Source: Candidatus Edwardsbacteria bacterium (GTDB taxonomy: Bacteria; Edwardsbacteria; AC1; EtOH8). From it: 64,000 bases of DNA. Made by a program: the position numbers and the translations under genes. Positions within the stretch are counted from its first letter, which is position 1. Every line of letters begins with the position of its first letter. Location of the stretch: assembly GCA_018821925.1 (NCBI GenBank), contig JAHJLF010000016.1, forward strand, positions 19,255-83,254, in the 5' to 3' direction. Positions 34,931 through 35,930 of this stretch are shown in pieces. The notes beneath the pieces were generated by a model. That model was given only the letters and a program-made list of their open reading frames with translations. It did not search any database and had not been told where the DNA came from.

Positions 34931-34977
34931 TTTGAGGTCACAATTTGTGACCTCAAATGGAAATCACAAATTGTGAT
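34931..34977 (+). promoter_or_regulatory. Two palindromes (27-bp TTTGAGGTCACAAtTTGTGACCTCAAA and 15-bp ATCACAAaTTGTGAT) between recN and the ORF6N gene; candidate operator and/or terminator
   Basis: Perfect inverted repeats. The GTCACAA-N-TTGTGAC core recurs twice inside the downstream CDS. Confidence 0.5.
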
Positions 34978-35003
34978 AACCAAATAAATATATTAGTATC
35001 ATT

Positions 35004-35930
35004 ATGACTAAAAAAGCTCTAATAAAAATTGACGACATACAAAACAAAATCCATACCATCCGTGGTGTGCAAGTAATGTTGGACAGTGATTTGGCTACCC
35101 TCTACCAAGTAGAAGTCAAAGTGCTTAATCAAGCGGTAAAACGCAACGTCGGAAGATTTCCTAAAGAATTTATGTTTTACTTATCTACAGATGAGTACAA
35201 TTCTCTAAGGTCACAAATTGTGACCTTAGAGAACACAAAATCTTTAAGGTCGCAAAATGTGACCTTAAACAGCAGGCGTGGGAAACACCGTAAATATCAG
35301 CCCTATGTATTTACTGAACAAGGCGTAGCTATGCTTTCGGCCGTTTTGCGCAGTGACGTGGCCGTAAAGATAAGCATCAGCATAATGAATGCTTTCATTT
35401 CAATGCGTAGGTTCATTGCCGCCAATGCCGGGATAATGCATCGGGTCGGAACGCTTGAAGTGAAACAGCTCGAAATGGATAAAAAGATGGACAAAGTTTG
35501 GGATGCTATAGAGAGTAAAAGCATACAACCCAAGCAAGGAGTTTTTTATAATGGCCAGGTTTTCGATGCTTATAAATTTATCTCCGATCTTTTCCGTAGC
35601 GCAAAAAAATCCATAATTATCATAGACCCATATATTGATGAAACAGTATTAATCCATTTAACCAAACGGCCAAAAGGAGTGAAGGTAGTTATATTAACAA
35701 AGGAAACACCAAAACAATTATCTTTAGATGTAAAAAAATTCAATCAGCAATATCCAACTATTGAAATAAAGGAATTTAAAGAGTCTCATGATAGATTCAT
35801 CATAATAGACCGTGCCGATATATATCACATAGGTGCGTCGCTTAAAGACCTCGGGAAAAAATGGTTTGCTTTTTCTAAAATGGACATGGGCATTGCTGAT
35901 ATGATAGAAAAGCTTAAGAATATTACGTAA
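35004..35930 (+). CDS. ORF6N (KilA-N-like) DNA-binding domain protein with an uncharacterised C-terminal domain
   Basis: IRGVQVMLDSDLATLYQVEVKVLNQAVKRNVGRFPKEFMF...PYVFTEQGVAMLSAVLRSDVAV is the ORF6N signature. The SLRSQIVT motif is tandemly duplicated. The C-terminal HDRFIIID...YHIGASLKD resembles a degenerate PLD-type HxK..D..GS motif. Low-GC gene. Confidence 0.7.
   Translation: MTKKALIKIDDIQNKIHTIRGVQVMLDSDLATLYQVEVKVLNQAVKRNVGRFPKEFMFYLSTDEYNSLRSQIVTLENTKSLRSQNVTLNSRRGKHRKYQPYVFTEQGVAMLSAVLRSDVAVKISISIMNAFISMRRFIAANAGIMHRVGTLEVKQLEMDKKMDKVWDAIESKSIQPKQGVFYNGQVFDAYKFISDLFRSAKKSIIIIDPYIDETVLIHLTKRPKGVKVVILTKETPKQLSLDVKKFNQQYPTIEIKEFKESHDRFIIIDRADIYHIGASLKDLGKKWFAFSKMDMGIADMIEKLKNIT

Follow-up and report, generated by a model that had tools for sequence, protein, structure and literature searches.

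Palindromic DNA sites within and upstream of an ORF6N gene as putative operators of the encoded protein

We describe four DNA palindromes at a gene for an ORF6N-domain protein in a 64,000-nucleotide stretch of the Candidatus Edwardsbacteria contig JAHJLF010000016.1 (hereafter the window), two of them upstream of the gene and two inside its coding sequence. Across about 240 related genes of bacterial, archaeal and phage origin, a palindrome of this kind recurs within the coding region of the DNA-binding domain, where it is conserved as DNA, changes on both arms in a compensatory manner and varies in step with residues of the domain's own recognition helix. The palindromes are most likely cognate ORF6N sites, because the residues with which their variable base pairs co-vary lie almost exclusively between 39 and 44 in the predicted recognition helix, a pattern that held in an independent set of metagenome genes. 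Our preferred reading, which we hold to be slightly more probable than all others combined, is that they are duplex sites for the helix-turn-helix (HTH) of the ORF6N domain encoded by the same gene and that the protein would limit its own synthesis through them. An earlier note on this DNA had proposed that a DNA-binding-domain gene holds its own putative operator, and DNA-level conservation together with the co-variation of base pairs and recognition helix now lends that proposal strong comparative support.

All four palindromes were found where the earlier note had placed them (Table 1), and the gene on the 5' side is, as it had said, recN (TIGR00634, E 2.9e-160). Upstream palindrome 1 starts 15 nt past the recN stop and has its centre 60 nt 5' of the ATG; both of its half-sites fit the specificity expected from K39 and Q43 of the gene's own helix. 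Upstream palindrome 2 has imperfect outer arms (TGGAA/aaCCA), with 10/12 arm positions paired over 34958-34982, is similar to the intragenic palindromes of 'WKSQIVIS' type in other family members and fits the helix prediction at position 4 only. Within the coding sequence the note had described a perfect 23-bp palindrome at 35206-35228; its symmetry is indeed perfect but its length was underestimated, since the arms extend to a 33-mer. The tandem SLRSQ(I/N)VTL peptide that it had also reported results from a 39-bp duplication at 35199 and 35238, which encodes SLRSQIVTL (aa 67-75) and SLRSQNVTL (aa 80-88). In the second, degenerate intragenic palindrome one half only fits the helix, the left half-site having a G at -4 that is a mismatch to Q43. 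With up to 3 mismatches allowed, the 17-mer core GGTCACAANTTGTGACC occurs 3 times in the 64 kb compared with 0.10 expected, a number reached in 0/100 shuffles, and all 4 matches to the 13-mer core in the window are at the ORF6N gene. The note had further implied that the intragenic palindrome and its duplication are peculiar to this gene and had offered a recent duplication as one option. The former is wrong and the latter finds no support: nearly all of the ORF6N-domain genes sampled from bacteria, archaea and viral contigs have a palindrome at this loop, and the two-copy layout is also present in the syntenic orthologues L221 and L224 and in most close homologues, with 1 to 5 copies in other lineages.

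Table 1. Coordinates of the palindromes, the gene and its domains in the window.
Feature	Position	Strand	Description
Upstream palindrome 1, TTTGAGGTCACAA-T-TTGTGACCTCAAA	34931..34957	.	Perfect arms, 13+1+13; equals family consensus
Upstream palindrome 2, core ATCACAA-A-TTGTGAT at 34963-34977	34958..34982	.	Core 7+1+7 perfect; centre 34 nt before ATG
Intragenic palindrome 1, TTCTCTAAGGTCACAA-A-TTGTGACCTTAGAGAA	35201..35233	.	Perfect 33-mer, 16+1+16; encodes (N)SLRSQIVTLE(N)
Intragenic palindrome 2, TTTAAGGTCGCA-AAA-TGTGACCTTAAA	35243..35269	.	Degenerate: 12-nt arms, one G:T mismatch, 3-nt centre; encodes SLRSQNVTLN
39-bp tandem duplication carrying both intragenic palindromes	35199..35276	+	Units 35199-35237 and 35238-35276; 81% identity, spacing 39
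ORF6N-PLD-like gene	35004..35930	+	308 aa; member of PADLOC candidate defence family PDC-S05
ORF6N domain coding region	35043..35345	+	aa 14-114; Pfam, AF2 model, mutual-information scan
Long helices, aa 118-170	35355..35513	+	AF2 secondary structure
PLD-fold C-terminal domain (predicted), aa 179-305	35538..35918	+	Foldseek pdb; PADLOC NsnC/MkoC similarity; invariant alignment columns

Family-wide conservation was examined in 80 genome loci in which palindromes were sought without using the motif. Most loci carry a perfect palindrome centred on CAA-N-TTG at one place, 45-54 nt before the FTEQG codons or 90-93 nt in two-copy genes, and the family consensus is TTTGAGGTCRCAA-W-TTGYGACCTCAAA. Arm statistics on 76 of the loci gave a median best perfect arm of 9 nt in the loop region (at least 12 nt in 30/76), compared with a median of 4 and a maximum of 7 in control segments of the same genes (n=394), and the observed arm exceeded that of synonymous-codon shuffles at p<=0.01 in 52/76. 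ORF6N genes of viral contigs with quite different, short C-termini carry the same palindrome, so that its presence follows the ORF6N domain rather than the phospholipase D (PLD)-like domain found at the C-terminus of the window protein. A single intragenic site is the usual state (114/130 genes; range 0 to 5). The highest number was seen in L046, where five tandem intragenic palindromes with a spacing of 33-42 nt have their centres at -207 to -48 from the FTEQG codons.

When 111 unique sequences were pooled, Watson-Crick pairing was at least 78% at offsets 2-13 from the centre and reached background by offsets 15-16; arms in some genes extend to 16-20 nt. Positions ±2, ±3 and ±6 form an invariant core, with T, C, A and A at -6, -3, -2 and -1, and position ±4 changes freely among A:T, G:C and C:G. 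In a 97-sequence alignment 94.6% of the cells over ±2 to ±13 are paired, as opposed to 69.8% in column shuffles and at most 43.7% with slid partners, and double-sided, compensatory changes occur at 10/12 stem pairs (267 cells). The element thus combines dyad symmetry with a sequence-conserved core in the manner of an operator for a dimeric HTH protein. A dispersed repeat of the repetitive extragenic palindromic (REP), Rickettsia palindromic element (RPE) or miniature inverted-repeat transposable element (MITE) kind was rejected: 120 unique loci hold 6 copies only away from the gene and its immediate flanks, and the window holds none elsewhere. In cultured-phage genomes only 5 unannotated records matched; in one of them, L161, a palindrome is present in each of three ORF6N genes or pseudogenes and stand-alone copies are absent. 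The centre base alternates between A and T in the otherwise near-identical viral loci L154 and L156-L159 (upstream copy ACTGGTCACAA-W-TTGTGACCAGT). Family-wide this alternation appears as I/F (or N/I) in the peptide, fits an unconstrained centre and came with no sign of segment inversion.

The earlier note had assumed that the peptide motif is primary, and the data reverse this order, the DNA palindrome being primary and the peptide following it. Compensatory change ties synonymous positions to positions that alter the amino acid, as in TCA..GTG (S..V) versus TCG..GCG (S..A), and in Gly codons the wobble base changes together with base 2 of the paired codon (TTC..GGA, TAC..GGT, TGC..GGC). The same DNA, GGTCRCAA-W-TTGYGACC, is moreover read in two frames, as AGG TCR CAA WTT GYG ACC, which gives RSQ[IF][VA]T, in 91 sequences, and as G GTC RCA AWT TGY GAC C, which gives LV[AT][NI]CD, in 20. 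Stand-alone copies in non-coding DNA are as symmetric as the intragenic ones. In an AlphaFold (AF2) model the encoded peptide (aa 70-96) has a predicted local distance difference test (pLDDT) score below 50 and is the lowest-confidence segment except for the N-terminal tip, lying between well-predicted elements of the domain.

The two syntenic orthologues extend these observations to the upstream region. In both L221 and L224 recN is followed by the ORF6N gene, a stable chromosomal arrangement in three related genomes, and the 64 nt holding both upstream palindromes are conserved better than either flanking gene. Upstream palindrome 1 is kept in both orthologues, with a compensatory A:T to G:C change at ±4 of this non-coding DNA in L224. 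Upstream palindrome 2 is kept in L224 and lost in L221 (TT to CC), and L224 has gained two more upstream palindromes by a 129-nt insertion (L224:2285-2500). The window and L221 share 98-100% identity in the flanks but only 52-82% in the tract 34971-35561, which takes in the ORF6N domain, the probable coiled coil and the 33 nt directly 5' of the ATG. This tract is, judging by the identity profile, an allelic replacement of the N-terminal module by recombination. A separate patch in the 3' part of recN (34733-34833) has 18 mismatches to L221 in about 100 nt of an otherwise near-identical recN and may be a second, short recombination tract. A reading of upstream palindrome 1 as the relic of an ORF6N pseudogene (in frame it would give LRSQFVTS) was rejected on its position 15 nt past the recN stop with no other ORF6N-like coding around it, and on its conservation with compensatory change in the orthologues.

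The evidence that links the palindrome to the protein comes from a mutual-information (MI) scan of 115 unique genes, in which 91 variable protein columns (48 N-terminal and 43 C-terminal columns of the domain) were compared with 9 variable offsets of the palindrome. Residues 39, 40, 43 and 44 of the predicted helix 38-47 account for all of the top 7 couplings, with normalised MI of 0.57-0.86, and the best coupling outside these residues has a normalised MI of 0.45. The four residues stand at i, i+1, i+4 and i+5 and so share one helical face of the second HTH helix. The strongest pairs are Q43 with ±4 (0.86), V40 with ±4 (0.72), K39 with ±8 (0.70), Q43 with ±5 (0.68) and K39 with ±7 (0.65), the remaining two being A44 with ±4 and V40 with ±5. 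In terms of bases, Gln43 goes with A:T at ±4 in 62/65 cases, Glu43 with G:C in 34/34 and Lys or Arg43 with C:G in 13/14; Lys39 goes with G:C at ±7 in 62/63, and where position 39 is Arg, Ser or something else, A stands at -7 in 46/52. Gln with adenine, Glu with cytosine and Lys or Arg with guanine are the canonical side-chain-base contacts in the major groove of duplex DNA, and it is this set of pairings that we find. Residues 22, 26, 28 and 38 are weakly coupled to ±9 to ±13, which may point to additional contacts.

The two specificity residues combine freely. All of K/Q, R/Q, K/E and R/E at positions 39/43 occur, with the half-sites GTCACAA, ATCACAA, GTCGCAA and ATCGCAA respectively, and they do so in both reading frames. 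Several pairs of genes are similar elsewhere in the domain, yet differ in Q or E together with A:T or G:C on both arms: L071/L072 (87% identity), L059/L142 (85%), L041/L046 (81%) and L083/L084 (80%). Intragenic half-sites fit the helix encoded by their own gene in 260/272 cases for residue 43 and in 239/276 for residue 39. In an independent set of 60 metagenome genes fetched later the rules were obeyed at 99/116 and 107/120 half-sites, whereas in 2000 shuffles the two counts averaged 50 and 79.7 and never exceeded 73 and 95. The specificity of the palindrome thus co-varies with the recognition helix, as does that of the operator of an HTH protein, and this relation holds out of sample. For the window gene, K39 and Q43 predict GTCACAA, which is the half-site of upstream palindrome 1 and of intragenic palindrome 1. 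The PDB holds no sequence relative, and a separate model of the N-terminal domain built from a 6-sequence alignment was too poor for use (pLDDT 42.7).

Stand-alone copies concentrate upstream of the gene. In the 120 unique loci 28 such copies (about 20 loci, ~17%) are found no more than 330 nt 5' of RGxQVMLD, a conserved N-terminal motif, 7 lie within 300 nt past the stop and the 6 others are elsewhere in the flanks, an upstream enrichment of about 56-fold. The centres of the upstream copies group about 91-119 nt ahead of the RGxQVMLD codons, which corresponds to about -30 to -37 and about -57 to -62 from the ATG, and the window occupies both of these preferred positions (-34 and -60).

Several observations weigh against the reading of the palindromes as autoregulatory operators of the gene that contains them. 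Shared ancestry can make co-variation look stronger than it is, and the rule fails at about 11-15% of the out-of-sample half-sites. Complementarity of the arms extends to ±13, and to 16-20 in some genes, which is beyond what helix residues 39-44 explain. The flanking copies do not follow the specificity residues of the adjacent gene (39/66 half-sites fit); in about 25 loci (e.g. L006, L045, L052, L150, L224) they are mostly of GGTCACAA type whatever the adjacent helix, and some are hybrid, an A-type half being joined to a G-type half. Replacement of the N-terminal module could account for this mismatch by leaving the sites of an earlier allele in place. Because about 80% of loci are without an upstream copy, promoter occupancy or looping is not a general mechanism. 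Consensus scans compared with shuffles identified no promoter above chance at the locus, and a promoter identity of the palindromes was rejected on the same grounds; a sigma-70-like match, GTGATA-18-TATCAT (34973-35002), overlaps upstream palindrome 2, and such matches are no commoner here than in shuffled sequence. The palindromes were also rejected as intrinsic terminators, none of them being called in a terminator scan (flanks AAATGG and GAGAAC).

From the comparative pattern we infer physical binding by a dimer with a regulatory outcome, and we propose the following mechanism. The ORF6N domain would bind duplex DNA as a symmetric dimer in which each monomer reads one half-site 5'-GGTCRCAA, residue 43 reading the base pair 4 from the centre and residue 39 the base pairs 7-8. 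The site would occupy a part of the domain's coding sequence that specifies a structurally tolerant loop, and this placement within the gene would make binder and site inseparable on gene transfer. The protein would limit its own synthesis by a roadblock to RNA polymerase elongation at the intragenic site or sites, and at this locus the two promoter-proximal sites 247-312 bp away may reinforce the effect by occupancy or looping. Feedback of this kind would need no host-specific promoter and would suit a mobile, potentially toxic defence gene that moves among bacteria, archaea and phages. Self-binding within the reading frame and the promoter-proximal copies together suggest such promoter-independent autoregulation, and we infer that autoregulation by roadblock is the best functional reading.

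The protein might also bind these sites for a purpose other than autoregulation, for example tethering or storage, a decoy or reference function or nucleation in the manner of ParB on parS, with the flanking copies serving other family members in trans. The residue-base co-variation applies here just as well, and the prevalence of GGTCACAA in the flanks regardless of the adjacent helix, the related sites in ORF6N, Bro-N and RhuM genes of phages and the membership in a defence-candidate family, a PDC-S05 representative of which is protective against T7, T5 and T4 in E. coli, all count in its favour. However, no sign of trans partners was seen, the sites in the window being at the ORF6N locus only, and a nuclease directed at this motif would be endangered by having a site of its own. 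We regard this explanation as unlikely.

A structural role of the extruded palindrome we consider distinctly improbable. A hairpin or cruciform might serve as a hotspot of recombination or template switching for the exchange of N-terminal modules and for tandem duplication, or as a single-strand origin or nicking site. Long perfect arms of up to 16-20 nt that are also found in non-coding DNA, outer sequences that vary yet stay complementary and copy numbers of 0 to 5 all speak for it, and the PLD fold can in principle carry out transesterification (textbook knowledge). The tract replaced relative to L221 begins exactly at the centre of upstream palindrome 2, but its right edge lies in the conserved GQ(V/I)FDAY codons and not at a palindrome. 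A max-chi-square breakpoint scan of 6860 protein pairs peaks at aa 91-100, where it is confounded by the difference in rate between the variable loop and the conserved FTEQG block, and segment-identity correlations are uniformly low. The palindrome is also present in ORF6N genes that have no PLD domain. A purely structural role also leaves the invariant core and the coupling to the recognition helix unexplained. On the recombination site that the earlier note had suggested, the data weigh neither way.

A hairpin in the mRNA, two in tandem in the present gene, that controls translation, processing or stability would agree with the very stable folding predicted for 35190-35280 (-37.9 kcal/mol, z = -7.7), and the upstream copies could sit in a 5' untranslated region. 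The folding is strong because any palindrome folds in this way. Internal stem mismatches comprise 21 G.T, 17 A.C and 33 of transversion type, so that there is no preference for G.U over A.C and transversions are common. The apical sequence is invariant around a 1-nt centre, the coupling to the HTH follows a duplex-DNA recognition code and an Rfam search gave no match near any gathering score, only sub-threshold microRNA and small-RNA noise. The same function would moreover be needed across bacteria, archaea and phages. An RNA element was therefore rejected as the primary explanation on the stem mismatches and the Rfam result, and we give this alternative little credence.

The tandem arrays of 2-5 dyad-symmetric sites in the coding sequence of a predicted binder recall replication-origin iterons inside the gene of their initiator, of the lambda O/ori or pMEA300 RepAM type, the chromosomal copies then being relics. 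Here a single site in 114/130 genes does not make an iteron array, neither an adjacent AT-rich unwinding element nor a replicon context was seen, and the gene belongs to a defence-candidate family and sits stably beside recN in three related genomes; we think an origin very improbable. Least credible and already disfavoured is a functionless quasi-palindrome that perpetuates itself by template-switch 'correction' in a peptide-tolerant loop, for although arm length is highly variable and runs into arbitrary sequence in a loop predicted to be disordered, the palindrome keeps its position in either frame and in bacteria, archaea and viruses alike, has an invariant core, is coupled to the recognition helix and has upstream copies conserved more strongly than coding sequence.

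Sites inside the gene of their own binder are already known. Lambda O has repeated dyad-symmetric sites (ori-lambda) inside its own gene. RepAM of the actinomycete element pMEA300 likewise has its sites inside its own coding sequence (PMC2440964). What the two share with the ORF6N genes are repeated dyad-symmetric sites of the binder's own gene in a segment that tolerates the constraint. They differ in being replicon origins with arrays beside unwinding elements, the sites lying in a linker or elsewhere in the gene, whereas ORF6N genes are chromosomal or phage genes that usually have a single site within the coding region of the binding domain, and the pattern extends through a whole domain superfamily. 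The parS site lies within spo0J/parB, the gene of its binder, and PurR in purB, lac O2 and gal OI are intragenic operators that act as roadblocks or loop anchors. These resemble our case as palindromic protein sites in coding sequence, and roadblock and looping are what we propose here. They are individual cases from one organism each, and we know of none reported to be conserved with compensatory change across a family, in two frames or within the region of the binding domain. Rickettsia palindromic elements, which are mobile repeats of 100-150 bp in many unrelated genes of one genome and are translated in tolerant surface regions, have in common with the ORF6N palindrome that palindromic DNA is read through as protein in a tolerant region. 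In contrast, the latter is a single site of 27 bp that recurs in many genomes at a fixed position of one gene family and varies in step with the protein's recognition helix. In open-access papers and preprints we found no description of a palindrome element of ORF6N, PDC-S05, KilA-N, Bro-N or RhuM genes, and none of a site in the coding region of a DNA-binding domain that is conserved with compensatory change, in two frames and superfamily-wide. What appears to be new is the placement within the DNA-binding domain and the compensatory conservation in two frames across a domain superfamily.

Related domains carry palindromes with cores of their own. In RhuM-family genes (Pfam E 5.8e-27; L163-L216, L021:1354-2361 and the upstream open reading frame of L054) an analogous in-frame palindrome with covarying variants is found at the equivalent loop, for example CAGTTGTTGCAAA-T-TTTGCAACAACTG, which encodes SVVANFATT, GCAATGTGCAAA-A-TTTGCACATTGC and AACTGTCGCAAA-T-TTTGCGACAGTT; some RhuM members are without it. 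Bro-N genes (Pfam E 1e-10; L225-L304, L015:1106-1651, L098, L109) have xACAA-A-TTGTx' at aa 55-62 in 11/14 unique genes. It encodes x-T-N-C-x', where codon x' is the reverse complement of codon x, with the pairs V/H, V/N, T/S, G/T, G/P and S/R. A first small Bro-N sample (L218, L219) had looked negative and the larger sample was positive. These findings lead us to speculate, with somewhat less than even confidence, that ORF6N as well as RhuM-N and Bro-N domains each embed a cognate operator in the loop of their own DNA-binding domain. Binder and site would then be passed on as a single unit, and toxic phage and defence genes that move between bacteria, archaea and viruses would gain self-tethering, or a self-control that depends on neither promoter nor host. 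The hallmark motif of ORF6N, LRSQIVTS or LVANCDR, and the Bro-N motif xTNCx' would then be by-products of a DNA site.

In phages, prophages, Type I restriction-modification loci and defence islands, few domains whose mechanism is yet to be explained are as common as ORF6N, RhuM and Bro-N. If our reading is correct each family member would disclose its own binding site together with a two-residue specificity code, with base 4 set by residue 43 and base 7 by residue 39, that can be read from genomes. A 'protein motif' that defines a Pfam family would be a DNA constraint, that is, a cis element that overrides protein sequence in two frames. It would also provide a general way for a toxic gene that jumps between distant hosts to stay regulated without a host-adapted promoter, and for PDC-S05 as a candidate defence system it would be a first lead to the mechanism.

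The window protein matches the PADLOC hidden Markov model for PDC-S05 (PDLC04869) over its full length (E 2.1e-122, aa 5-305 against profile positions 10-301/306). In E. coli a PDC-S05 representative is reported to lower phage plating about 1000-fold for T7 and T5 and about 10-fold for T4 (10.1101/2024.09.26.614923, preprint); the tested representative is described there with a RhuM-type N-terminus, whereas the window member has ORF6N. Foldseek supports a predicted PLD fold for the C-terminal domain, with hits to NucT (6ehi, E 1.8e-5) and also to F13, Zucchini, PLD3/4 and Tdp1 (model pLDDT ~80-86 in aa 190-280). The degenerate PLD-like HxR..D..GAS motif to which the earlier note had drawn attention could be located as H262-D-R264-x4-D269-x7-G277-A-S279-L-K (H262-D269 encoded at 35787-35810, G277-S279 at 35832-35840). 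It departs from the canonical HxK(x)4D(x)6G(S/T)xN in that the catalytic Lys is replaced by Arg in 23/23 aligned members (R264 is invariant), and Pfam PLDc_2 scores 19.8 bits, under its 27-bit threshold. Compared with HKD nucleases of the phospholipase D family (Nuc/NucT, BfiI, Zucchini), the window family appears to share the fold and keeps H-x-[KR]-x4-D...G-[AS]-S, but has Arg where those enzymes have the catalytic Lys.

A similar layout of N-terminal HTH, long helix and PLD-like domain is found in the archaeal regulators TrmB and TrmBL2, and Foldseek aligned 223-297 columns to TrmBL2 (E 1.2e-4 to 4e-4). TrmB proteins bind palindromic sites. The likeness is limited by TM-scores of ~0.3, a root-mean-square deviation of ~17 Å and a lack of sequence similarity, the ORF6N HTH is of another family and, unlike TrmB and TrmBL2, the window protein keeps the H, D and GAS of the PLD motif. 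Two PDC-S05-type genes are adjacent in some loci, a RhuM-PLD and an ORF6N-PLD gene in L021 (1354-3846) and two ORF6N-PLD paralogues in L007, and every one of these genes carries a palindrome of its own. In L021 a further palindrome, of ORF6N type, precedes the start of the RhuM-PLD gene by about 45 nt.

The ORF6N domain of the window protein scores well above the Pfam gathering cutoff (PF10543, 112.4 bits compared with 27.8, E 1.3e-32) over profile positions 1-86/86, with a 15-aa insertion that corresponds to the duplicated palindrome. In the AF2 model the HTH is predicted at aa 27-34 and 38-47, and the recognition helix KVLNQAVKRN, in which K39 and Q43 are the specificity-coupled residues, is encoded at 35118-35147. 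The long helices that follow are probably a coiled-coil or dimerisation region. The protein is identical to P0001, which is annotated in a Candidatus Edwardsbacteria metagenome-assembled genome, and has more than 8000 relatives, with full-length homologues 60-70% identical in very distant bacteria and in archaea (Methanolobus, Methanosarcina, Nanoarchaeota).

The locus is a GC-poor island (GC 0.35-0.43 compared with 0.55-0.60 in the flanks) and, with recN and a LamG-like gene as neighbours of the ORF6N gene, no obvious defence island. The LamG or 3-keto-disaccharide-hydrolase-like reading frame (337 aa; 36176-37189) lies in the same GC-poor island, and in L224 a fructosamine-kinase/APH-like gene is inserted between it and the ORF6N gene. 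Directly 3' of the ORF6N gene is an inverted repeat, CCAACATCATC...GATGATGTTGG (35958-36039), with 11-nt arms 60 nt apart and a CAG-rich stretch between them, which is kept in L221.

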